A program made the position numbers and the translations under genes. Below the pieces are notes generated by a model. That model was not told where the DNA came from, did not search any database, and was given only the letters and a program-made list of their open reading frames with translations. From an uncultured Gammaproteobacteria bacterium (GTDB lineage: Bacteria > Pseudomonadota > Gammaproteobacteria > JACCXJ01), in NCBI GenBank assembly GCA_963764725.1, contig CAVXTM010000018.1, positions 651,630 through 715,629 on the forward strand: a stretch of 64,000 nt of DNA, written 5' to 3'. Of this stretch, positions 7,152-58,681 are shown piece by piece (position 1 is the first letter of the stretch; each line of letters starts with the position of its first letter).

Positions 7152-7877
7152 CTACCGCGAGTCCTCTCCAACGCCTGCTTCCGCGAGCTTTTCTTTGGCT
7201 TTCTTGGTGACCAGGAATGCGACTACGATAGTCGCGGCGAGACCAATTCCGAAAAAGACCCATTGCGCCGTGCCCCACTCGCCTCCTCCGCCGGTTAAAG
7301 CCCCGCCTATTGCACCAAGATATAAGTACAGTATGACTCCGGGAATAATCCCGACGAAGGTCGCGAGGACGTAGTGCCAAAATTTGATCTGCGTAATACC
7401 AAAAAAGTAGTTCTGAAGATTGAACGGCACCAAAGGACTCAACCGCAGCAGCAGAACGACCTTCCAACCGTCCTCGGCGACTGCTTTATCCACTGCCTGG
7501 AACTTGGGCCGCTTTTCGATCATACCTTTTAATCGGTCACGCACGAGATAACGCGCGGTCAAAAAGGCAAGTGCCGCGCCGACCGTCGCACCGACCATAA
7601 CGACGGGGAACCCCCATCCCAAACCGAACACCAGACCGGCTGCGATTGTGAACGGCGCGCCCGGCGCGAGGACTACCGTGGCAACGATGTACGCGGCTGC
7701 AAAAACCACTCCGCCCCAAACACCCAGTCCCTCTATCCATCCGCTGAATGAATCTAGCCAGTCCTTTAGCGGTAGTAAAAACCAGGCGGCGAAAACCGCG
7801 ACCAAGGCGATAGCCGGGATAATCAAATTCCTGGGGATTCCTTTTTCTTTCGATTCCGGCATCGCGTGCTCCTTCAA
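7152..7877 (-). CDS. TVP38/TMEM64 (DedA superfamily) membrane protein
   Basis: LLRLSPLVPFNLQNY motif, multiple TM segments. Confidence 0.9.
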   Translation of the reverse strand: MKEHAMPESKEKGIPRNLIIPAIALVAVFAAWFLLPLKDWLDSFSGWIEGLGVWGGVVFAAAYIVATVVLAPGAPFTIAAGLVFGLGWGFPVVMVGATVGAALAFLTARYLVRDRLKGMIEKRPKFQAVDKAVAEDGWKVVLLLRLSPLVPFNLQNYFFGITQIKFWHYVLATFVGIIPGVILYLYLGAIGGALTGGGGEWGTAQWVFFGIGLAATIVVAFLVTKKAKEKLAEAGVGEDSR

Positions 7878-48450: not shown

Positions 48451-48577
48451 GGAAGCTCCATAAAAATGTCGCGAGCAAGCCCAGATGCGCGAAGCCGCGG
48501 AGAGCGGCCCAGGGACGGCCGCGCTTTGAGAAGCGAGGAACGCCGATGGGCTGCGCAGTAACCTTTGCAGAGCTTCC
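48451..48577. mobile_element. MITE-like element, copy 2
   Basis: GGAAGCTCCATAAAA...CTTTGCAGAGCTTCC flanked on both sides by CTAA. Confidence 0.7.
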
Positions 48578-48582
48578 CTAAA

Positions 48583-50208
48583 ATGATCACTGCCGCTTAT
48601 CGCTGGATCGATCGCAACATTCTTGAGCTCGGCCGCGAGATGCGGCTGTCGTATCTGCCGCCGCTCATGGTCTACGTTGGGGCGGGCATCTCTGGCCTGA
48701 CCGGCATCGTCGGCACCTTCTTCGTCAAGGATTACCTAGGCCTCTCCGCCGCCTTCCTCGCCGCACTCGGCTTCTGGGCGGGGATCCCCTGGGTGCTCAA
48801 GATGCCGCTGGGGCATCTGGTCGATCTCATCTGGCGCTGGAAAAGCCTGCTTGTCTATCTGGGCGCGAGCCTCATCACGGTGAGCCTCTGCATCATGGTG
48901 TTCCTTATCGGCGAGCGCGAGGCCATGACGGCCATCATGCCGGCGGAGGCGTGGTTCGTGGTGAGCGCGCTGCTCGCGCCGATCGGCTATGTGATCCAGG
49001 ACGCGGTCGCCGACGCGATGACTGTCGAGGCGGTGCCGCGCGTCGATGAGGATGGGCGGCCCATCGATCCGGCCACCCGCAAGCTCATGCACACCACCAT
49101 GCAGACGCTCGGGCGTGTGGCTATCATCGGCGGCAGCACGCTGGTGGCGCTTATAAACCTCTATCTCTTCACCGGCGTGGAGAAGCTTCCGCAAGCGGAG
49201 ATCGCGCAGATTTACCGAGACGTCTATTTAATGGCGCTCAGCATCCCCGCGATCTCGGTGCTGGGTGTGGTGAGCGCCTCGCTCCTCAAGGCGCGCGACC
49301 GGCGCCGCCTGCTTCTTGCGGGCAAGAGTCGCGCCGAGGTGCAGGCGCTGATCCTGGAGAACGTTGATCCGACCAAACCCAACTGGTGGATCCTCGGCGG
49401 CAGCCTGCTGTTCGTAGTGTTCACGCTCGCCGTCGGTCTCGGTAATCTGCCCTACAACGAGGAGATCGTATTTGTAGGCTCCTTCGCCATCGTCACCTTT
49501 CTCATCGAGCGGCTGACGCGCGAGCTCAGTCCCGAGGCGCGGGCGACGCTCATCGGCACTGCCATCGTCATCTTTGCTTTCCGGGCCACGCCCACTCCGG
49601 GCCCCGGCGTCACCTGGTGGATGATCGATGAGCTCAAGTTCGATCAACATTTCCTCTCAGTGCTATCGCTAATCGCAAGCGCGCTCACCTTGGTCGGCAT
49701 GTTCATCTTCCGCCGTTTCATGGCCGAGCGCTCGATCGCCTATGTCGTCGGTTTCCTGACCCTTGTTGGTTTTGTGTTGGCGCTGCCCATCCTCGGCATG
49801 TACCACGGCCTGCACGAGTGGACCGCCGCGCACACCGGCGGGGTGGTAGACGCGCGCTTCATCGCGCTGGTTGACACCGCGCTTGAATCGCCGCTCGGTC
49901 AGATCGCAATGATCCCGATGCTGGCCTGGATCGCGAACTCTGCGCCCGCCAACCTCAAGGCCACCTATTTCGCAGTGATGGCTTCCTTTACTAACCTCGC
50001 GCTCTCGCTGAGCCAGCTCGGCAGCAAGTACTTGAACCAGATTTTCATCGTCACCCGCGAGGTCCGTGATCCCGCGACCGGGGTCCTCCAGGCGCCCGCC
50101 GACTACAGCCAGCTCGGAACCCTGCTCATCGTGCAGATCCTGCTTGGCCTCGCCCTGCCCTTCGGCGGGATCCTCTTCGCCCGCCTCTCCAAGTTCCGCA
50201 GCGCTTGA
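48583..50208 (+). CDS. MFS-like membrane protein (BT1/folate-biopterin transporter-like)
   Basis: PW.LK, QD.VADAM.VE, AP...AT.FA...SF.NL; many TM segments. Confidence 0.75.
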   Translation: MITAAYRWIDRNILELGREMRLSYLPPLMVYVGAGISGLTGIVGTFFVKDYLGLSAAFLAALGFWAGIPWVLKMPLGHLVDLIWRWKSLLVYLGASLITVSLCIMVFLIGEREAMTAIMPAEAWFVVSALLAPIGYVIQDAVADAMTVEAVPRVDEDGRPIDPATRKLMHTTMQTLGRVAIIGGSTLVALINLYLFTGVEKLPQAEIAQIYRDVYLMALSIPAISVLGVVSASLLKARDRRRLLLAGKSRAEVQALILENVDPTKPNWWILGGSLLFVVFTLAVGLGNLPYNEEIVFVGSFAIVTFLIERLTRELSPEARATLIGTAIVIFAFRATPTPGPGVTWWMIDELKFDQHFLSVLSLIASALTLVGMFIFRRFMAERSIAYVVGFLTLVGFVLALPILGMYHGLHEWTAAHTGGVVDARFIALVDTALESPLGQIAMIPMLAWIANSAPANLKATYFAVMASFTNLALSLSQLGSKYLNQIFIVTREVRDPATGVLQAPADYSQLGTLLIVQILLGLALPFGGILFARLSKFRSA

Positions 50209-50367
50209 CGACTTCCGGAGGTCGGCCGCCTACACTATCTGGAAAACGGTTTTTTTAGGGGTGCGAGCGTATCGTCCCAGAATAGGCACGTGCCAACTTT
50301 CGGGAACGACAAGCTGATTTTTCATGTATTATTCCGGTGTTCTTCATCTCTGCAAAAAGTAACTACG

Positions 50368-50386
50368 GCCCAACAAGGCGTTGGGC
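50368..50386 (+). repeat. Collapsed attC-like site
   Basis: GCCCAAC-AAGGC-GTTGGGC: only the R'' and R' boxes. Confidence 0.5.
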
Positions 50387-50416
50387 ACGCAGATAGATCG
50401 TTGATAGAATTCATGC

Positions 50417-50698
50417 GTGCCGAAGCTGACAATGTCCCGGCTGCGCGACCTTATTCGCGCACTAAACTATGTAGTCTCTATTCATGCCGCCGAAGAGCTA
50501 GACGATGACAACCTCACGATCCTCGATCTCGAAAACATCATCCTCACAGGCAAAATCATCGAACGCCAGCGCGACGACCAAACCCGCGAGGTCAAGTGTG
50601 TCATCCGCGGTTTCACCCTCGATGACCTCGAAGCAGAAACCATTGTCAAAGTTGGCCCCACCGGAAGACTTGTTGTCATTACCGTATACCTCGCCTAG
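50417..50698 (+). CDS. DUF4258 domain protein (putative toxin)
   Basis: S.HA.EE, I..G.IIE, VITVY terminus. Confidence 0.75.
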   Translation: MPKLTMSRLRDLIRALNYVVSIHAAEELDDDNLTILDLENIILTGKIIERQRDDQTREVKCVIRGFTLDDLEAETIVKVGPTGRLVVITVYLA

Positions 50699-50981
50699 CG
50701 AACGTTGCGCCTCGTGTGGGCAAGCTGGGGTTCAGCTTCGTGAGGTGACCCGTAGTTTTGGTCATGGTCCTAAACTTCTTGTGATAGAGAACATCCCGAT
50801 GTGGTCATGTCCCCATTGCGGTGAATCGTATTTCACGGCTCAAACCATGCACGAGATTGAGCGTATCAAGACACTTCGTAAGTCCGTAGCAGTCGCTCGC
50901 CACGTGCCGGTCGCTGTTTTCACCGGCAATGTGCCCAACAAGGCGCTCCACCGGACGCGCCAAAAAGCGGCGCGCCGGTGA
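50690..50981 (+). CDS. YgiT-type zinc finger protein (putative antitoxin); start uncertain
   Basis: CASCG...VIENIP...CPHCGESY, directly after DUF4258. Confidence 0.75.
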
Positions 50982-50996
50982 GCTAACTCGTTTAGA
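50933..50996 (+). mobile_element. Integron attC site
   Basis: GCCCAAC...GCTCCACCGGACGCGC / GCGCGCCGGTGAGC...GTTTAGA hairpin with unpaired bases. Confidence 0.75.
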
Positions 50997-51096
50997 TTCT
51001 CCGACGAGGCCAACGGTCCATCCATTGCTACGGCACTAGATTGGTCTGCGCTCGCGGTCACTTCCTCAAGAATGGCCGAGCTCAACATGGGCGTGG

Positions 51097-51530
51097 GTGA
51101 CGAAATACTTCATGCTGGGTCGCTTCATTTCCCACGGTAGCCTCCAACTGAATCAACCCTTGGCACGATTTGGAACCATCGCCATGATGCCTGGAGAGCC
51201 GGTGAAGGATGGGAGAAACCTGCTTGTGGAGGCATTCTTGGTCGAGATGCGGTCTCTTTCCGGATTCAGCGGCTCTCCCGTACTCGTTAACGTGGGTCCG
51301 GGGACCTACCGAGGCAATGGCACGATGATGCCCTTCTACACTGAGACTATCGGCCTTATGGGAGATAGATACTGGGCACAAGGCTTCAATGGCCGAGGTG
51401 CACAAAAGTCGGATGGAGCGAAAACCGACCTGGAGGTGCCCCTGAATACAGGCATCTCAATTGTAGCGCCGGTCTGGAAGATCAGAGAGGTCCTTGATGA
51501 GGACATATTCAAGGCCAAGCGCGGCGACCC
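51097..51530 (+). pseudogene. Trypsin-like serine protease fragment (cassette remnant)
   Basis: SGFSGSPV catalytic-Ser motif; 5' part missing. Confidence 0.55.
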
Positions 51531-51609
51531 CCAACATGTCGTTCAACACGGACCGGCGGCGGAAGCCGCTTCGCGGCGATTCCGCCGCCGGTGTAACTTT
51601 ACATTAGCG
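51529..51609 (+). mobile_element. Integron attC site (degenerate R')
   Basis: CCCCAAC...ACCGGCGGCGGAA / TTCCGCCGCCGGT...ATTAGCG. Confidence 0.65.
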
Positions 51610-51744
51610 GTTATGGAGCCGGAGTACACATGAGCAGAATGACTCGTTGGCATATCTTCGCCATCTCATCTCGCACTCCTCTTGGGATGTTCCCGTGACC
51701 CTTTCGAAAATCTCGATTCACCTCGTGTCTTCTTTGGTAAGCCC

Positions 51745-51775
51745 GCGAGGATGTGCTGAGGAACGAAGCGCATCG
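51745..51775 (+). repeat. REP-like sequence left of RAYT
   Basis: AGGATGTGCTGAGGAACGAAGCGCATCG; inverted copy at 52345-52371. Confidence 0.7.
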
Positions 51776-51811
51776 TCGAGTGAGAAACCTTTCAAAGGTC
51801 AAACGGACTCC

Positions 51812-52338
51812 ATGACGGAATATCGCCGTGCTCATGTTCCAGGCGCAACGTGGTTTTTCACGGTTAATCTCGCCGAGCGCAGGGGTAACCGTTTGCTGGT
51901 CGAGCAGTTCGATGCGTTGCGCCGGTCTTTTCGGTACGTCAGGGAAAGACATCCATTCCGGTTGGATGCGGTGGTGGTCTTGCCGGATCATCTCCATTGT
52001 ATTTGGACGTTGCCTCCCGGTGACACGGATTTTTCCATGCGCTGGAATTTGCTGAAGGACATTTTTCTCGTGCCATCGAAAAAGGGAACGCATCTCTAAA
52101 AGCAGGGTAAAACGACGAGAACGGGGCTTGTGGCAACGTCGATTTTGCGAGCACCTGCTACGCGATCAGGAGGATTTCACCAAACACGTCGATTACATCC
52201 ATTGGAACCTGTAAAACATGGCTGGGTAAAGCAGGTTGCCGATTGGCCGCATTCGAGCTTTCACGACTATCGGCCCGTGGCATTTATCCGGTAAACTGGG
52301 GTTGCGAGGGAATATTCGACGTTTGCGCGGGTGAATAA
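51812..52338 (+). pseudogene. REP-associated tyrosine transposase (RAYT), frameshifted
   Basis: YRR..VPGATWFFTV, VVLPDHLH, WQRRF.EH, YIHWN, WPHSSFH. Confidence 0.85.
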
Positions 52339-52344
52339 CTCGAA

Positions 52345-52371
52345 CGATGCGCTCGTTCTAGCACATCCTAC
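52345..52371 (-). repeat. REP-like sequence right of RAYT
   Basis: Reverse complement GTAGGATGTGCTAGAACGAGCGCATCG. Confidence 0.7.
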
Positions 52372-52834
52372 ACGGGCTCACTATCTACTCTTGCACCTTG
52401 CGCGGGCTGATTCTGGTCGCGACGTAGCGTAGGAGCATGCGACACGCAGACGATCGTAGGCACGTACTCGAGGTCATCATCGCAGCGGTCTGACATAGCG
52501 CCCGGCAAGGATCTGGCCCCGAGCTGGGGGATGCAGGCCTAAATCAATAGATCCTCCCTCGAATGCCGATTTCAAGCCCCAGCGTTAATGTTTCCGATAT
52601 GACGGCTGCAACACGGATCTCTGCGGCAATCTTCACTACGGAGGGGTAATAGGCGTTCTTTCCGACAAACACTATGAACATCGTTGTAAGGATAATTTTC
52701 AGATCGAAATACGGTGCCTATTCACAGCGCGTCTGTTCGTTGGGATCCCATCGACGGCTGCCGAAACAGTCAGAGCTCAGTCGCTCGCCTTGCGCACGAT
52801 CATAACTCCTAAGGCTGGAAGGAGTGCCAGCCTT

Positions 52835-53425
52835 TTACCCATTGATTAGGCTGGCTGTTCGGCCTGTTCCTTGGTCGGGTGACGCTCGGGCGGAACCACC
52901 GGCGAGCTTCGCTAATGCGGCGCGATCGCGCTTCCCAACCTCGTAATTCGACCGGCGCAACGATAACGGATCTTTGGACATCAAGCCGCTCAAAGCGCGT
53001 ATGTGTGTCCGCTGCTTGCTCACGAGCTTACTGATCAAGGGCTTCAAGGTTCGTGACATAGCAGTGTCTTGGAGCATATGCTCATAGTTTTCGAGGCTGC
53101 ACTCCTCGCCCTGCATTAGAACTCTTAACCCGGCTTTATCGCTAAACACATGGGCATCGTGAAACAGTCCACTGGCCAGCGTGCTCAACTCGGACCACTT
53201 ACTTTGTGGCTCTAACTCGTCGGCGGCCCGAATAACGTCCAGCCGGCGGATCTTGGTTCCGAGCAGCGAAGCGGCTTGTACATGATCGACGAGTATGCGA
53301 AATAATTCGTCAACTTCCGGATCACCCTCACCAAGCTTCCATTCTTTGGCACCTAGGGTTTCTTGATAGGCCTCAATCGCTGACAGCTCGTTTCTCCAAA
53401 GTGAATTAATCTCTTCCCGATTCAT
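52835..53425 (-). CDS. DUF2383-like ferritin-fold protein
   Basis: ELSAIEAY, DH, LMQGEE...Y, QRTH; resembles 35692-36153; GGAGG RBS. Confidence 0.7.
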   Translation of the reverse strand: MNREEINSLWRNELSAIEAYQETLGAKEWKLGEGDPEVDELFRILVDHVQAASLLGTKIRRLDVIRAADELEPQSKWSELSTLASGLFHDAHVFSDKAGLRVLMQGEECSLENYEHMLQDTAMSRTLKPLISKLVSKQRTHIRALSGLMSKDPLSLRRSNYEVGKRDRAALAKLAGGSARASPDQGTGRTASLING

Positions 53426-53485
53426 GATGACCTCCGAACCTGCTTTTTGATAGCAGGGTTTGGGAACTTTGATCTATATCGGGCG

Positions 53486-53500
53486 GCAACTGCTGTGCCA
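53486..53500 (-). promoter_or_regulatory. Sigma54 -24/-12 promoter
   Basis: TGGCAC-AGCAG-TTGC, perfect consensus. Confidence 0.65.
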
Positions 53501-53891
53501 TGGCTAGTTAGGTCTAGCGATAGCTATTCATTTTCAGTGAGATAGGGTGTCGCGCTTGAGTGTATGAGCGCGCTCCGCGGGCGAGGCTCCGGAACGGTTT
53601 ACCGATGGAACGTGTAATTTCGGTCCGATTTCACAGCAAGCGTTTCCACCGGTTTGCAAGGTGAGGATCGATGATGGCGTGTAAAGGAAGACTGGAATGT
53701 ATATATCCGGCCTGTTGGTGAGCACGGGTATCGGCTCCGGCCACGATCGAATGTGCGCGTTCTGGTTCCTTATTGGGCGACCGTCTCGAAACGCTACAAG
53801 GGGTTTGCGGATTCATCGTTTGGCCCCGAGAGTTGCACCGTTTGTGGAGACGGACTGATAATTCCCCCGACTGTTCAATTGGAGTGTCCTA

Positions 53892-54101
53892 ATGAAGGTA
53901 TATTCCGCCATTATCGAGCGTGATCCGGGCACCGGCCTGTTTGTGGGATTAGTTCCTGGGTTCCCTGAGGCTCATTCACAGGGTGTGACTCTCGATGAGC
54001 TCAATCGCAATCTCAAAGAGGTCATTGCCATGCTTCTGGAGGATGGCGACCCTCAGCTCGAATCAGAATTTATTGGGGTCCAGAACGTTGCCGTTGCATA
54101 G
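53892..54101 (+). CDS. hicB: HicB family antitoxin (short form)
   Basis: VPGFPEAHSQG.TLDE...NL.E.I. Confidence 0.85.
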   Translation: MKVYSAIIERDPGTGLFVGLVPGFPEAHSQGVTLDELNRNLKEVIAMLLEDGDPQLESEFIGVQNVAVA

Positions 54102-54104
54102 ACC

Positions 54105-54330
54105 GTGGGCAATGTTCCTGTTCTGAAGCCGATCGAGGTCGAGGCAATTCTACTCAGTTAGGCTTCGTGGAAGTGCGCCAGCGCGGATCGCACAAGCAGT
54201 TCCGCGACAGCTCTGGACGCTGCACGACGGTCCCGTTTCATCAGGGCCGCGACATATATCGCCGGTTTTGCTTCGGCAGATCGCAAGAGACGTCGGGCTC
54301 ACAGTCGATGAGATCCTCAAGCGCCGCTAA
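54105..54330 (+). pseudogene. hicA: HicA family toxin, frameshifted
   Basis: GF.EVRQRGSHKQF...TTVPFH...LLRQIARD spread over several frames. Confidence 0.8.
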
Positions 54331-54513
54331 GCCAGCTCGGCAGCAAGCACTTGAACCAGGTATTCATCGTCACCCGCGAGGTCCGTGATCCCGCAGGCGC
54401 ACGCCGACTAAGCCAGATCGGGACCCTGCTCAGCATGCAGATGCTGCTTCGCCTCGTCCTGCCCTTCGGCGCGATCCTCTTCGCCCGCCTCTCCAAGTCC
54501 CGCAGGGCTTGAC
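54325..54513 (+). repeat. Degenerate duplicate of the 3' end of the BT1-like gene (about 50005-50209)
   Basis: Shared GCCAGCTCGGCAGCAAG, TTCATCGTCACCCGCGAGGTCCGTGATCCCGC, TCCTCTTCGCCCGCCTCTCCAAG. Confidence 0.85.
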
Positions 54514-54643
54514 CGCCCGGCAAGGATCTGGACCCGAGCTGGAATCATCGCGGAGGTCCCGTTGAAACCTAACCAAACATATTTCAAATTTGAGGTACCA
54601 CTGCAAGGCCCCCTGCCCTTCCGCGACAGGCACTGTGTTTTCT

Positions 54644-54741
54644 CCCTCTCCCGCCGGGAGAGGGTGGGGGTGAGGGGATCGAAATAGACGCAATTGTTTT
54701 ATTGTATTCCCTCATCCCAGCCTTCTCCCGGAGGGAGAAGG
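54644..54741. repeat. Inverted pair of CCCTCTCCC...GGGAGAGGG REP-like palindromes
   Basis: CCCTCTCCCGCCGGGAGAGGGTGGGGGTGAGGG and CCCTCATCCCAGCCTTCTCCCGGAGGGAGAAGG. Confidence 0.65.
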
Positions 54742-54864
54742 CACTTCCAGATTTGTTGAAGTTAGTCTGTATTCCATTGGCTGTGGGAGAATCCAACGGA
54801 CCAAAAAGCGCACGTACGGTGCGCTGAGCGCACGCGGAACAAGGCTTATGCTTGATGAATGTCA

Positions 54865-55145
54865 CGTTATCGGAGAAACTGGTATGCGTTCGGTATCGCT
54901 ATGACAAACTGCGCAATAGGCGCTACAAAACTGCAGAGCTCGTCCTGGATGAAGTCTCGTAGACCCCCAAGGAGACCGTCCAGAACGGCTCGATGCACCG
55001 CAAACCGTCCGACCGCGTCGGCGTTCGTATTGATTATCCCGAGGTCAAGGCGGTCGGGAGAATATGGAGACCCAAGCAGAAAGTTTGGGAAATGTCCTAC
55101 GGTACCGCAGCCACACTGAACCTCGCGAACCGCATTGAGATGGAC
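54865..55145 (+). pseudogene. Remnant of a conserved hypothetical gene (LVCVRYRYD family)
   Basis: EKLVCVRYRYDKLRNRRYKTAELVLDE...VGVRIDY...W.PKQKVWEM.Y...LNLANRI across frames with an internal stop. Confidence 0.55.
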
Positions 55146-55149
55146 TAAA

Positions 55150-55251
55150 CCTACACACATCTAAGGCTAGATGGGTATATCTATATACACATGTTTGTAT
55201 ATGAAAATTTATGCTTATGATGGCGGGTTCGTTAGTCCATATATGTTAGCC
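55150..55251 (+). mobile_element. attI-like site
   Basis: AT-rich tract ending GTTAGTCCATATATGTTAGCC with no attC hairpin, directly before a cassette. Confidence 0.4.
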
Positions 55252-55275
55252 CTTCTGATCAAGGATTTGCTCTTA

Positions 55276-55938
55276 ATGGATGAGCCACAGTTGATGCAGT
55301 TTGCGAGGGCAGTCAGTTTCGAGCCCGACTATTTGCCAGAATACTTCACCTGGTGGGACAACGTCACGCCAACACAAGTCGAAGAGTATAACCAGTGCCT
55401 GGACAAAGCCTCTAAGGAGCGCGACATACAGATATTCTTAGAGAGCCACCCGAACTTTTTAGTTCAGCACCTTGGAGGTGGACACGGCCGTTGGGTTATT
55501 CCCCAAAAGCAACTCGGCACAGAATTCATCACTGACTTTGTTATTGGTGAACGTCATTCCTATGGTTTCGAGTGGCAGGCAGTTGAATTAGAAAGTCCAT
55601 CGGTTCATCTCTTCACGAAGAAAGGCGATCCATCCGCCGCACTGAACCACGCCATTCGACAAGTCACGGACTGGCGAGCATGGATAAAGAGAAATCAAGG
55701 TTACGCGTCCCGCCGTCGGGAAATGCAGGGCCTTGGTTTGATCGATATTGACTCCTCTGTGAGAGGACTAATCCTCATCGGCCGCGAGCGTGACGTAAGT
55801 TCCGAAACAAATGATCGACGACGCCAACTAGTGCAAGATTTGCAGATCAGCATTCATACATACGACTGGATCGTCCGGGGAACCATAGAACGAATAACGG
55901 CCATTGATCAATCTCACCGTGGAGACAAAGACAGCTAA
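55276..55938 (+). CDS. DUF4263 / Shedu SduA-like PD-(D/E)xK nuclease
   Basis: E..IQ.FL..HP, TDF, VELESP, AIRQV.DW..W, LIGR, I.TYD. Confidence 0.75.
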   Translation: MDEPQLMQFARAVSFEPDYLPEYFTWWDNVTPTQVEEYNQCLDKASKERDIQIFLESHPNFLVQHLGGGHGRWVIPQKQLGTEFITDFVIGERHSYGFEWQAVELESPSVHLFTKKGDPSAALNHAIRQVTDWRAWIKRNQGYASRRREMQGLGLIDIDSSVRGLILIGRERDVSSETNDRRRQLVQDLQISIHTYDWIVRGTIERITAIDQSHRGDKDS

Positions 55939-56025
55939 ACCAAACATTCAACCGCATGCGCGGAACCGCAGTTTTTCCTTCGCTTGGCATTCCGTCGCGC
56001 GGCCGTTAATTGATTTTCGTTAGCC
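55933..56025 (+). mobile_element. Integron attC site (degenerate)
   Basis: AGCTAAAC at the stop codon ... GCGCGGAA / TTCCGTCGCGC ... GTTAGCC. Confidence 0.65.
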
Positions 56026-56037
56026 CGAGGAGAATAT

Positions 56038-56847
56038 GTGCTGACAGATAGTCGTAGAGTCGAGCAGAAGGACAAGACGTTCATAGGGGATATCACAAAG
56101 GAGCGATTCTGCAACCATTTGTTCACTCGACTTATCGCAAAGGGACGGCGATTCACCGAGGTTGACTTCAAATACTCGATATTCGAGAGCTGCTACCTCC
56201 GTAATTGCGTCTTTAATTCGTGCGATTTCACAGGCTGTAGATTCGTAGCGACAAACCTTCATGGCTCAAGTTTCACGGGTTGCAAGTTCGACTACACCAC
56301 CTTCGAGCGGACGCTAGTCGACAACGACGTATTGGACTCGGGATGCCCTGGCCACGAGAATCTGAAGATGAGGTTCGCTCGTACGCTTCGAATGAACTAT
56401 CAGCAGCTTGGGGATGCCAAGTCGGCGAATAAGGCAATTGGCGTGGAGCTGCAAGCGAGCGAGGTTTACTTACATAAGGCTTGGCAATCCAACGAATCGT
56501 ATTATCGGAACAAATACGCCGGGTGGCGACGGTTTAAGGTTTTCGTGGAGTGGATCGACTTCAAATTGCTGGACTTCGTATGGGGCAATGGTGAAAGCAC
56601 ACTCAAGCTGCTGCGCTCGACCGCCTTTATGCTGGCAGTCATGGCTCTGGCCGATGTTCTTGCGTTTCGAGACCCGCAGAGTCTAGGCAGTTACACGGCT
56701 GCCCTAGTTGAGGCGCCACAGATTTTCCTTGGTACGTTCACGCCGAAGCATTATCCGGGCGGGTATGTGACTGTGATACTGCTTACTAGGCTAATCGCGT
56801 TTGGCTTTTTCATGTCCATAATCATCAAACGCTTCAACCGGCGATGA
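56038..56847 (+). CDS. Pentapeptide-repeat protein with C-terminal 2-TM channel-like domain (Hailong HalA-like)
   Basis: F..xDF/C.F pentapeptide repeats, WGNGES, TM-loop-TM ending FFMSIIIKRFNRR. Confidence 0.75.
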   Translation: MLTDSRRVEQKDKTFIGDITKERFCNHLFTRLIAKGRRFTEVDFKYSIFESCYLRNCVFNSCDFTGCRFVATNLHGSSFTGCKFDYTTFERTLVDNDVLDSGCPGHENLKMRFARTLRMNYQQLGDAKSANKAIGVELQASEVYLHKAWQSNESYYRNKYAGWRRFKVFVEWIDFKLLDFVWGNGESTLKLLRSTAFMLAVMALADVLAFRDPQSLGSYTAALVEAPQIFLGTFTPKHYPGGYVTVILLTRLIAFGFFMSIIIKRFNRR

Positions 56848-57489
56848 CTATGCATATATACGCATTTGGATCGCTATGCCGAGGGGATATAGGCCTTGAC
56901 TCGGATATTGATCTGTTAGCGATAGTAGACCGTCATGACTGTCGTCTCGATCAGAAGCTGTTCTCCATCTATTCCTACAAAAGACTCCAAGAACTTTGGC
57001 ATCAGGGAAACCCATTTGCTTGGCACCTTTCACTTGAAGCGCGGCTGATTCATGCGCCTGATGAGCGCGACTACCTAAAGCACCTAGGCCATCCGAATAC
57101 CTATCGGCACTGTCGCACAGACTGCCAACGATTCTTTGCCCTTTTCAAGGAAGCACGTGTTTCATTAAATGCAAGCGATAGAAGCACGGTATTCGATTTG
57201 TTCGACCACTTTTCTAAGCATACGGAACTTTGCCAGCTGCTTTTCTTTAGGTGTTAGGAGAGTCCCGGATTTCGGGAGGCATTCGGCCTTAAACTTGGGT
57301 GATGATGCGATCCATCTTGCAGCACAGCCTTATCGTGTTTTGGAAAGGGCGCGGATACTGTGCACCAGAGGCTATGGACTTAGCATTTCGCCAGATGACG
57401 CCGCCCTTGCGATCCGGTCTTTGGGGACGGTCAGTGAATGGATGACCAGACTTATAGAGAGAGCTGAAGACGATGAGCGACTTCAATAA
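56844..57489 (+). CDS. Pol-beta-type nucleotidyltransferase (Hailong HalB-like), frameshift near 57201
   Basis: YAFGS.CRG....SDIDLL, GNPFAWHL; second frame IRNFASCFS...RARILCTRGYG; removing one T joins them. Confidence 0.75.
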
Positions 57490-57790
57490 CCGAGTTGCAG
57501 CTCAAAGAACAGTTCTCCGCCTAGTGAACGCTAGAGCATGGGAGAAGGAAGAGCTGTTCAGTTTATCCAGCAAGGCGATTGAGCGGTGGGTATCGGTTAA
57601 CCGACTTAACCCCAAATGCAGATTAGTGGAGCTTATTACGTCTGCATCTGAAAAGCTGTTCTTTCTTGCGAACAAGAGCCAGGAGCAGATATCTGAGGAG
57701 TACAAGACAACATCACGAGGCTTCGCTTCCGTGGCGGAAGCCATAGAATCGGAGATGGCTAACCACCGCTTCGAGAGGGACGCCCCCTAA
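57473..57790 (+). CDS. Hypothetical 105-aa protein, third gene of the cassette
   Basis: Overlaps the NTase 3' end and reads into the attC site. Confidence 0.7.
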   Translation: MSDFNNRVAAQRTVLRLVNARAWEKEELFSLSSKAIERWVSVNRLNPKCRLVELITSASEKLFFLANKSQEQISEEYKTTSRGFASVAEAIESEMANHRFERDAP

Positions 57791-57819
57791 CGTCGGGCCC
57801 CTCAAGCGGACCGTTTACA
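57757..57819 (+). mobile_element. Integron attC site
   Basis: GGCTAAC (complement of the cassette-start GTTAGCC at 56019), CCGCTTCGAGAGGG / CCCCTCAAGCGG, GTTTACA. Confidence 0.75.
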
Positions 57820-57865
57820 CAGCCCTCGTCGGCTCCTCGGCCAGCCTTTACGGTGGAGAGCTACC

Positions 57866-58681
57866 ATGTCAGAAGCAAACGCTAGGTTCCTGGGTACGAT
57901 CCCCGAGCTATACGATCGCCATCTCGGCCCAGTGATCTTCGAGCCGTATGCTGCGGACCTGGCTCGCCGAGTCGCGGCTGCTACGGCTGCGCCCGTGTTG
58001 GAGGTAGCCTGCGGAACTGGGATTCTCACTCAGCAGCTGCGCGCGCGCCTGTCTCCCACCGTCCGGTTGGTCGCCACCGACCTGAACCAGCCAATGATCG
58101 ACTATGCACGCTCCAAGCTAGGCGCGATGACGTCCATTGACTGGCGCCCGGCCGATGCCGCAGCCCTTCCGTTTCCTTCCGCTTCGTTCACCGCCCTGGC
58201 TTGTCAATTCGGCCTGATGTTTGTCCCCGACAAGGAAGCGGCGTTCCGTGAAGCCCGGCGAGTTCTAGCGAAGGACGGTTTGTTCGCCTTCAACGTGTGG
58301 GCTAGCTTTGAACACAACCCGTTTGGGCGCATCGCGCATGAAACCATTGGAAGTTTCTTTTCCGTAGACCCGCCGAACTTCTATCAGGTGCCGTTCGGAT
58401 TCCACGATCCCGATGTGTTGCGGCGTTTCCTGGATGCAAACGACTTCGGTCAAGTGGAACTTGAGTGGGTCACCCTTGAGGCTCGCAGCCCGTCCGCGAA
58501 ATCGTTTGCCGTCGGACTCGTCAAAGGCAACCCCGTAAGCATCGCGATCCAGGAGCGTGAGGTCGCCCTAGATCCAATCGTTGACGCACTCGAAGCTGCT
58601 CTGGCGCGAGTCGGTGGCGATCATCCGTTCCGCTCAACGATGCGGGCGCTCGTAGTCACCGCGCGGGCGGGCGCTGTCTAA
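57866..58681 (+). CDS. Class I SAM-dependent methyltransferase (cassette)
   Basis: VLEVACGTG, TDLNQPM, ADAAALPF, CQFGLMF; stop lies in GTCTAAC (R'' box). Confidence 0.9.
   Translation: MSEANARFLGTIPELYDRHLGPVIFEPYAADLARRVAAATAAPVLEVACGTGILTQQLRARLSPTVRLVATDLNQPMIDYARSKLGAMTSIDWRPADAAALPFPSASFTALACQFGLMFVPDKEAAFREARRVLAKDGLFAFNVWASFEHNPFGRIAHETIGSFFSVDPPNFYQVPFGFHDPDVLRRFLDANDFGQVELEWVTLEARSPSAKSFAVGLVKGNPVSIAIQEREVALDPIVDALEAALARVGGDHPFRSTMRALVVTARAGAV

Follow-up and report, generated by a model that had tools for sequence, protein, structure and literature searches.

What is the three-gene unit on the plus strand at 56038-57790 of the 64,000-nucleotide stretch of DNA from an uncultured gammaproteobacterium that we have analysed (the window), and how is it related to the Hailong anti-phage system? 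A first-pass annotation, made from the letters alone, had described a Hailong-type channel and nucleotidyltransferase (NTase) followed by a third gene that it could not assign, all three moving as one integron cassette. The open reading frame (ORF) list and the sequence confirm that three reading frames overlap here as described: the TGA of gene 1 overlaps an ATG of gene 2, and the start of gene 3 lies 17 nt upstream of the gene 2 stop. Our best explanation, to which we give a probability of roughly 0.7, is that 56020-57813 is an integron-type cassette carrying a three-gene relative of Hailong, in which gene 3 is an obligate partner predicted to dock on the NTase. The features on which this explanation rests are the following.

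56019-56025, plus strand: GTTAGCC, an R'-type core site forming the 5' boundary of the cassette, with the crossover between G and TT
56038-56847, plus strand: gene 1, 269 aa, putative HalA-like effector with an N-terminal pentapeptide-repeat beta-helix, a helical linker and then C-terminal helices
56844-57489, plus strand: gene 2, HalB-like NTase of ~212 aa, here in two frames (56844-57257 and 57169-57489)
57201/57202, plus strand: extra T, a 1-nt insertion that by alignment with homologues shifts the NTase frame between ...VFDL and STVFL...
57473-57790, plus strand: gene 3, 105 aa, helical, with a core of ~96 aa, predicted NTase-binding subunit
57757-57819, plus strand: attC-like site, a 63-nt imperfect hairpin that overlaps the 3' end of gene 3

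Hailong, which pairs a HalA ion channel with a HalB nucleotidyltransferase, was reportedly described by Tan et al. in Nature in 2025. HalA is a homotetrameric DNA-gated cation channel that is toxic without HalB, and PDB entries 9nyi and 9dbj are HalA and HalB, respectively. According to excerpts of two sources (PMC13434031, PMC13586616), Hailong is a two-gene operon of a HalA channel with pentapeptide repeats and a HalB NTase with a helical second domain; HalB makes a tyrosine-primed oligo-dA that holds HalA shut, and a phage exonuclease is the trigger. The excerpt of the first source also reports HalB as an essential antidote (PMC13434031).

The structural model of gene 1 (pLDDT 86.8) is closer to HalA than to any other PDB structure. 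Its best Foldseek match is HalA (9nyi_A, E 5.9e-10 over 300 columns), and the next match follows at E 9.9e-6. VIA-align places residues 5-268 of the model on residues 56-356 of the HalA chain (Z 15.1, rmsd 7.3, 252 residues), and HalA is the sole PDB chain that it aligns along the whole model; its other rows cover the beta-helix only or reach up to about residue 195, the next being MfpA with Z 14.4 on the beta-helix only. As modelled, gene 1 thus matches the HalA fold, a pentapeptide-repeat crown with a C-terminal transmembrane pore. Residues 38-90 match the Pfam Pentapeptide repeats (E 1.2e-11), long hydrophobic helices lie near the C-terminus at 188-210, 216-231 and 241-266, and the C-terminal helices are modelled as a transmembrane segment, a pore-like loop and a second transmembrane segment.

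The NTase also has HalB as its nearest relative. Gene 2 carries the GS...DxD motif and matches Pfam NTP_transf_2 (E 1.2e-5), and its best PDB match is HalB, both with the window fragment as query (E 0.067) and with a profile (9dbj_A, E 8.7e-6), while the best minimal nucleotidyltransferase (MNT) in the profile search against PDB reaches E 0.027 (1wot). An hhalign comparison of 44 trio NTases with seven HalB-like proteins scores 97.5% (E 5.3e-12, 81 columns) and takes in the GNPFAWHL / GDLFxLHI block, which argues for homology beyond the generic NTase core. Among 401 genomes searched, canonical Hailong above the curated NCBIfam cut-off is found at one locus (L081 in genome G075, HalA 482 bits), where halA is followed by an overlapping halB and, after a 264-nt gap, by an unrelated gene that is DUF262-like by eye; gene 3 is absent at this locus, the one canonical HalAB locus examined. 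The trio and this locus share the gene order, channel and then NTase, with overlapping genes. The trio further resembles Hailong in its NTase, with GS...DxD and a GxxF(A/x)xH block common to HalB, in its mobile and defence-rich contexts, and, judging from the whole-length fold match, in an effector that would combine a cytosolic pentapeptide-repeat domain with a C-terminal membrane pore.

Unlike Hailong, described as a two-gene operon in the excerpt of PMC13434031, the trio has a conserved third gene. We surveyed its neighbourhood in two directions, over 80 genome loci collected from gene 1 and 80 metagenome loci collected from gene 3. Starting from gene 1, 71 loci hold a tight colinear trio; in three more the set is complete but has an insertion or gap, a contig end cuts off another three, and gene 3 is lacking in three (L011, L023 and L028). 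Gene 3 is present in 74 of the 77 assessable loci, so the two-gene operon of Hailong is not what this family shows. Starting from gene 3, the NTase and gene 1 are found in 61 loci, the NTase on a contig that ends before gene 1 in 18, and one locus is too short; the NTase is therefore held by 79 of 80, and no locus has gene 3 alone. The tie between the third gene and the pair, left by the first-pass annotation to a neighbourhood survey, is borne out from both sides. Trio genes are widely spread. Gene 1 proteins form at least 1004 clusters, and members of the clade occur in 147 species genomes matched by two peptide patterns, in Acidobacteriota, Cyanobacteria, Verrucomicrobiota, Planctomycetota, Bacteroidota and Pseudomonadota, with 45-73% identity between copies and a patchy distribution over these many phyla.

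Two of the loci without gene 3, both acidobacterial (L011 2961-5764 and L028 5935-8719), have an arrangement of their own, in which a gene 1 homologue stands with a convergent operon. This operon encodes an ORF that is metallophosphoesterase-like by eye (GDxH, GNHD, HGHSH), a 227-aa NTase with GSLFxWHL and a 135-aa helical protein that shows no similarity to gene 3. The arrangement is a second accessory-gene variant.

What gene 3 encodes can be approached from its conservation and its predicted partner. Gene 3 has 436 homologues, and its family forms 233 clusters (50% identity, E <= 0.001), nearly all of them stand-alone proteins of 90-110 aa, with a mean column identity of 53% in 30 sequences; R7, R12, N19, W39 and S69 are near-universal among 150 representatives. 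The model has four helices (pLDDT 79.7). The first-pass annotation was right that the gene resists assignment: it matches no Pfam, NCBIfam or PADLOC model, its profile reaches E 0.11 at best against PDB sequences, Foldseek against PDB gives E 0.98 at best, VIA-align against 48,161 chains gives Z 7.6 at best, to generic helical bundles, and the ESM Atlas yields no usable match. The phage collection holds no match either, and among the sequencing runs listed no RNA run holds the gene.

The predicted complex points to the NTase as its partner. For the pair from locus L001, the prediction scores 0.79 against 0.12 for the best of three controls; that mark is reached by 58 of 80 solved complexes and by 2 of 110 mismatched pairs. 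Contacts agree between runs to at least 73%, and the partner pLDDT is at least 80. The predicted interface joins NTase residues 94-119 and 167-178 with gene 3 residues 2-38 and 63-67, so that the N-terminal helices of gene 3 meet the VFDLS and ILCTRGxG motifs, which are specific to the NTases of this clade. Being part of this predicted interface would explain why TRGxG is conserved. Natural fusions of the NTase with gene 3 are also known, in two of the 150 representatives listed (P0477 and P0471). The gene 3 product therefore probably binds the NTase, as far as the models tell.

A single copy of gene 3 is found in the plasmid collection, on the Janthinobacterium lividum plasmid NZ_CP139977.1 (L102 3608-6324). 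It follows a pentapeptide-repeat gene, with an unannotated 616-nt gap at the place where the NTase would be expected and a gene annotated as 'exonuclease' just upstream.

By analogy with Hailong, gene 1 would encode a HalA-like membrane channel whose pore stays closed as long as a short nucleic acid is bound to its cytosolic pentapeptide-repeat crown, and gene 2 a HalB-like template-independent NTase that would make this gating ligand constitutively. A phage nuclease would then destroy the ligand, the channel would open, the membrane would depolarise and the infection would abort. In such a scheme the gene 3 product may act as an obligate small subunit docking on the NTase, as its modelled complex suggests, and our preferred guess is that it regulates or completes the enzyme.

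The tyrosines of the NTase bear on how such an enzyme could be primed. The first-pass annotation had proposed the tyrosine of a C-terminal TRGYG motif as a candidate primer. The motif is present in the NTase, but homologues have H, Q, I, V or K in place of the tyrosine, which speaks against this residue as the primer. The trio NTases do have three invariant tyrosines, Y4, Y41 and Y85, the last two of which by eye resemble counterparts of Y47 and Y93 of HalB (the first of these alone lies inside the hhalign alignment). In the seven HalB-like proteins an invariant tyrosine is the last, second-last or third-last residue (...EEYR, ...FDY, ...VYE, ...VSY, ...PYG, ...INY and ...DGY). It is the sole tyrosine invariant in those seven proteins that is not conserved in the trio NTases, which here differ from Hailong. 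A C-terminal [Y/H/N]ER tail of the trio NTases was considered as the conserved tyrosine and rejected, a tyrosine being among the last four residues in 16 of 71. The [Y/H/N] codon of this tail appears to overlap the ATG of gene 3, whose AT would supply its last two bases, and hence Y, H and N alternate there.

These observations leave room for a more specific role of gene 3, which we put forward tentatively and with considerable doubt: it might supply an acidic-tyrosine primer in trans, as a detached protein primer ('terminal protein') for the NTase. In HalB-like enzymes the invariant tyrosine follows acidic residues (...AEEYR, ...SDGY) and this tail is lost in the trio NTases, while gene 3 has a conserved S-E-E-Y-K, which in the model sits in a flexible, low-confidence loop between helices 3 and 4, and would be anchored to the NTase by its N-terminal helices; gene 3 might on these grounds carry the primer. 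Against this idea, Y77 of gene 3 is not universal, being tyrosine in 115 of 137 aligned representatives, and the NTase keeps its own three invariant tyrosines. If the idea were true, the channel-gating DNA would be built on a small protein other than the enzyme, and that protein would also deliver it, a sharing of the task between two proteins that is undescribed for nucleotidyltransferase-based defence.

That the trio moves as one cassette, as the first-pass annotation had claimed, is supported by breaks in its flanks, by the attC-like hairpin and by integrases in the genome. Contigs from four other public metagenome runs (X1/X2, X3 and X5, from three studies) are 90-99% identical to the window only from 56018/56019 to 57783-57796, and their flanks differ. 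In X1 (two contigs), X2 and X5 the match begins abruptly at 56018/56019, and the sequence upstream of it differs from one to the next. On the right, X3 reads ...CCCCTCAAGCGG-CCC-GTTGGGC against ...CCCCTCAAGCGG-ACC-GTTTACA in the window, so that the inner repeat is kept and the sequence after GTT is changed. GTTAGCC also stands upstream of gene 1 in L001, L031 and L056. The attC-like site is laid out as GGCTAAC (R''), CCGCTT-C-GAG-A-GGG, a loop, GCCC-CTC-AAGCGG and GTTTACA (R'), with stems CCGCTT/AAGCGG, GAG/CTC and GGG/CCC, a bulged C and a bulged A, and a DNA fold of -15.3 kcal/mol (z -2.39). Its box GGCTAAC (57757), which lies inside the non-conserved tail of gene 3, is the exact reverse complement of GTTAGCC (56019), as expected if a circular cassette were opened between G and TT. 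The two boxes on which the first-pass annotation relied are thus complementary and are core sites of a real cassette, but as 7-mers they occur at chance frequency (three and two copies in 64 kb). The GC content is 0.49-0.53 across the cassette and 0.62-0.65 in its flanks.

The source organism is rich in integrons. Three stretches of its genome match the integron-integrase model TIGR02249 above cut-off; they are given here by contig.

C15:164702-165643: integron integrase match, TIGR02249
C7:99992-100918: integron integrase match, TIGR02249, with one internal stop
C13:52921-53691: integron integrase match, TIGR02249, split

We searched for attC sites with a rule that asks for an R''-like box, followed 50-140 nt on by an R'-like box, and for complementary inner arms of at least 6 nt, which is not the model of IntegronFinder. 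Its matches cluster beside the integrases of C13 and C15, with further clusters on C4 and C2 and one site on C7; since a cluster at C18:540000 is an apparent false positive, the specificity of the rule is less than complete. Within the window it returns the two sites at 50933-50996 and 57757-57819, the latter sharing its 63-nt build with the attC at C15:166923, which adjoins an IntI gene. An earlier score based on arm pairing by RNA folding was discarded, its null distribution being as high as the observed values. We had also rejected the integron reading at one stage, on the chance frequency of the 7-mers and the lack of a recombinase in the window, and reversed this in view of the flank breaks, the integrases and the attC clusters. 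Elsewhere in the family, locus L056 has the trio inside an array whose attC ends recur at 7788, 8204 and 9772. Six gammaproteobacterial loci (L017, L018, L020, L022, L024 and L026) have a short attC-like site across the gene 3 stop, of the form GGCTAAC...GCATT-G-CAGCGG...CCGCTG-AATGC...GTTAAA, with core boxes that are degenerate in some.

Integron cassettes that carry anti-phage systems have been reported (Darracq et al. 2025; Kieffer et al. 2025), according to the excerpt of PMC13434031, which presents such cassettes as a store of defence systems and gives a 'biobank' picture of integron arrays. The trio resembles these cassettes in being compact and seemingly promoterless, in its bounds between G and TT, in the attC hairpin at its 3' end, and in having neighbouring cassettes that encode Shedu and toxin-antitoxin pairs. 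It differs from them in its three genes and in its length of 1794 nt, a large size for a cassette, and in that its array is without an integrase in the 64-kb window.

The copy in the window is damaged in its NTase gene. Homologues of gene 2 start with MHIY, which corresponds to the ATG at 56850, and full-length ones are single proteins of 206-232 aa. One base is omitted at 57201 in the contigs of X1, X2 and X3 and at 57203 in that of X5, so the insertion is absent from all four of the other metagenome runs; by our own reading, dropping one T at 57201/57202 gives back the FDLST of the homologues. The frameshift is private to this assembly, and it may be a real mutation or an assembly error. The NTase is also split in the genome loci L038, L058 and L075, the last of which has gene 3 split too, and gene 1 is frameshifted in L065, split in L058 and interrupted by ~1 kb in L047 and L055; decay is common in the family. 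A simple sigma-70 scan of the plus strand at 54500-58000 finds no promoter-like site, which is weak evidence. Given the frameshift in the NTase and the lack of a promoter-like site ahead of the operon, the window copy is probably a silent or decaying library copy, and a silent trio cassette would fit the 'biobank' picture.

Several of our results weigh against reading the unit as a cassette-borne relative of Hailong. Both proteins fall far short of the curated NCBIfam families, whose HalA and HalB models are equivalogs with cut-offs of 250 and 190 bits. HalA (NF051894) is the top match for gene 1 at 27.2 bits (E 2.1e-6), covering residues 18-94 of the pentapeptide region alone, and HalB (NF051895) is the top match for the intact NTase homologue P0246, used as query, at 34.1 bits (E 2e-8), over residues 6-95. 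The sequence of gene 1 reaches HalA through the repeats only (E 0.14 and 0.023), where ordinary repeat proteins outscore HalA, and the similarity of the NTase to HalB is confined to ~80 N-terminal residues; hhalign of the trio profiles against single canonical HalA and HalB sequences is weak (65% and 84%). The effector is ~100 aa shorter than HalA (269 aa against 371-395 aa) and is without the ~55 N-terminal residues of HalA. HalB-like NTases also pair with WYL proteins on plasmids, so that an NTase match alone does not define Hailong. If the NTase is an essential antidote, as HalB is reported to be, then a broken NTase beside an intact channel gene, as here and in L038, should be toxic in any cassette that is not silent. 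As for the cassette, the first attC score did not separate the ends of the trio from random stretches, the stretch upstream of 56019 folds no better than shuffles (z +0.60), as does the stretch before 55245, there is no tyrosine recombinase or integrase in the window (the nearest is at C18:619628), and phmmer with the IntI of this genome finds no integrase within 6 kb of the trio in the 80 genome loci. Finally, PADLOC matches lie within 4.5 kb in only 8 of 24 trio loci tested, a figure for which there is no control.

These points modify the picture. What stands of the Hailong-type system proposed by the first-pass annotation is the HalA-like fold of gene 1 and an NTase nearest to HalB, and what does not stand is membership in the curated families, neither cut-off being reached in the comparison of hidden Markov models that it had suggested. 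We take the trio to be a distant sister clade of Hailong, outside the curated HalA and HalB families, rather than canonical Hailong, because both proteins score so far below the cut-offs. Likewise, the window holds no integron proper, the integrases being on other contigs, and the cassette lies in an array that has none of its own.

The HalB-like NTase module seems to be reused with other partners. On four rhizobial plasmids (L103-L106) it lies directly downstream of a WYL-domain protein, with no HalA channel and with the invariant C-terminal tyrosine. These pairs resemble the trio in the NTase family and its C-terminal helical domain, and differ from it in that the partner is a soluble WYL protein, gene 3 is missing and the C-terminal tyrosine is kept. 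Two small plasmids (L107/L108) show related arrangements: on the Klebsiella one the HalB-like NTase comes after a DUF1883 gene and the WYL gene is divergently oriented, and on the Yersinia one the HalB-like NTase has no WYL gene annotated.

Other explanations of the locus have to be weighed on the same evidence. Gene 3 could be a small helix-turn-helix (HTH) transcription factor that represses or activates the operon from outside the enzymatic machinery. By our reading its segment EELFGLSSKAIERWVS resembles the HTH pattern of small DNA-binding proteins, one homologue (P0184) is named 'predicted transcriptional regulator' in one source, and R7, R12, R38, W39 and N43 are among its most conserved residues. 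We regard this role as unlikely, since no HTH family in Pfam or NCBIfam matches at E up to 0.1, neither winged-helix nor HTH structures turn up in the fold searches, the same residues (26-38) fall in the predicted NTase interface, and NTase-gene 3 fusions exist; a repressor of its own would also be of little use to a promoterless integron cassette. The docking role on the NTase is the one that we prefer.

The whole trio might instead be a toxin-antitoxin-like minimal-NTase module (MNT/HEPN, with type VII logic), its NTase modifying a protein and no nucleic-acid gate being involved. Minimal NTases are indeed the next matches after HalB (1wot at E 0.027, MntA at 17.5 bits), PADLOC gives weak PDC-S09 matches, and toxin-antitoxin cassettes lie in the same array. 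Such a module is very unlikely here: HalB outscores every MNT in all searches, the 17.5 bits of MntA compare with a cut-off of 60, and the GNPFAWHL / GDLFxLHI block lies beyond the generic NTase core, while the partner is a HalA-fold channel and not a HEPN RNase, neither partner has a HEPN match in Pfam or NCBIfam, and we see no Rx4-6H motif in the gene 3 alignment. We also give little credence to a housekeeping ion-channel module, unrelated to phage defence and on cassettes by chance. It would agree with the 16 of 24 neighbourhoods without a known defence gene, with the lack of any copy in the phage collection, and with the statement, in the excerpt of PMC13586616, that one machine-learning tool did not predict Hailong itself as defensive. 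A housekeeping role is hard to reconcile with a patchy distribution over many phyla of copies 45-73% identical, with a place in a variable hotspot, where a relative of the same genus has a different gene, with frequent pseudogenes, and with the reported storage of defence systems in integron cassettes (PMC13434031, excerpt). The neighbours, too, speak for defence. They include the Shedu gene of the window and, in the eight loci with PADLOC matches, Cas1, AbiJ, a RecD-like candidate, Gabija GajB/PbeA, Lamassu LmuA/C, HNH and, twice, mad2. We therefore keep to the cassette-borne sister of Hailong.

What would such a sister add? Hailong is a recent 'molecular guard', in which DNA made constitutively keeps a lethal channel closed and a phage nuclease, by removing that DNA, ends the closure. 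The new element is a third subunit, obligate and of no known fold or family, in a clade that is widespread and unannotated, and it offers a handle on the priming or regulation of the NTase and on the route of the ligand to the channel. DefenseFinder and PADLOC fail to detect Hailong, as far as the excerpts of PMC13434031 and PMC13586616 tell, and PADLOC does not detect the trio as Hailong; with scores below the NCBIfam cut-offs as well, current annotation would name no gene of the trio as Hailong. Titles and abstracts yielded no description of a three-gene Hailong, and an accessory-gene subtype may already stand in the primary paper. The trio also illustrates clearly how a multi-gene defence system can be packed into a single integron cassette.

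The surroundings of the trio are a cassette array without its own integrase, at 50210-57819 of the window, flanked by the gene of a BT1-family transporter and that of a methyltransferase. Its contents are a DUF4258/MqsA-like pair, HicAB remnants, a duplicated 3' end of the BT1 gene, Shedu SduA and the trio. Two further features of it are these.

50933-50996, plus strand: attC site of the same array, after the DUF4258/MqsA-like cassette
55171-55938, plus strand: Shedu SduA cassette (Pfam SduA_C, E 6.9e-14; PADLOC SduA, E 5.8e-23)

The 5' arm of the site at 50933-50996 closely resembles that of the attC at C2:143917 of the same genome. A second GTTAGCC, at 55245, overlaps the likely start codon of the Shedu cassette at 55243, and a repeat (D10) relates 55223-55252 to 55997-56026. 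A public genome of the same genus, G403, is colinear with the window through the end of the BT1 gene and again from 57790; in between it has one unrelated 339-aa gene, preceded by ...GGGGTTCGTTAGTCCATTATAT directly followed by GTTAGCG and succeeded by a similar attC half, and it thus shares the 3' half of the attC at the same chromosomal place. A tandem of GTTA(G/A)T., 6-7 nt and GTTAGC. precedes the Shedu cassette, the trio cassette and the G403 cassette (L098 12779-12808), and this arrangement may be the cassette entry site of the locus.

Within the array, Pfam matches at 50417-50981 show a DUF4258 toxin-like gene overlapping an MqsA-like zinc-ribbon antitoxin gene. The last ~200 nt (50006-50209) of the BT1-family transporter gene at 48565-50208 are repeated 4.3 kb downstream at 54325-54513 with 90-94% identity, which looks like a relic of insertion or rearrangement at the origin of the array. 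At 53892-54388 a 69-aa HicB-like antitoxin ORF precedes a HicA-like ORF whose match is limited to profile positions 15-46, probably a decayed HicAB pair. An ORF at 51647-52099 is transposase-like by eye and has no Pfam match. Between the duplicated BT1 end and the Shedu cassette, at 54644-54741, lies an inverted repeat of 36 nt (81% complementarity) that is rich in GGGAGAGGG/CCCTCTCCC and looks REP-like.

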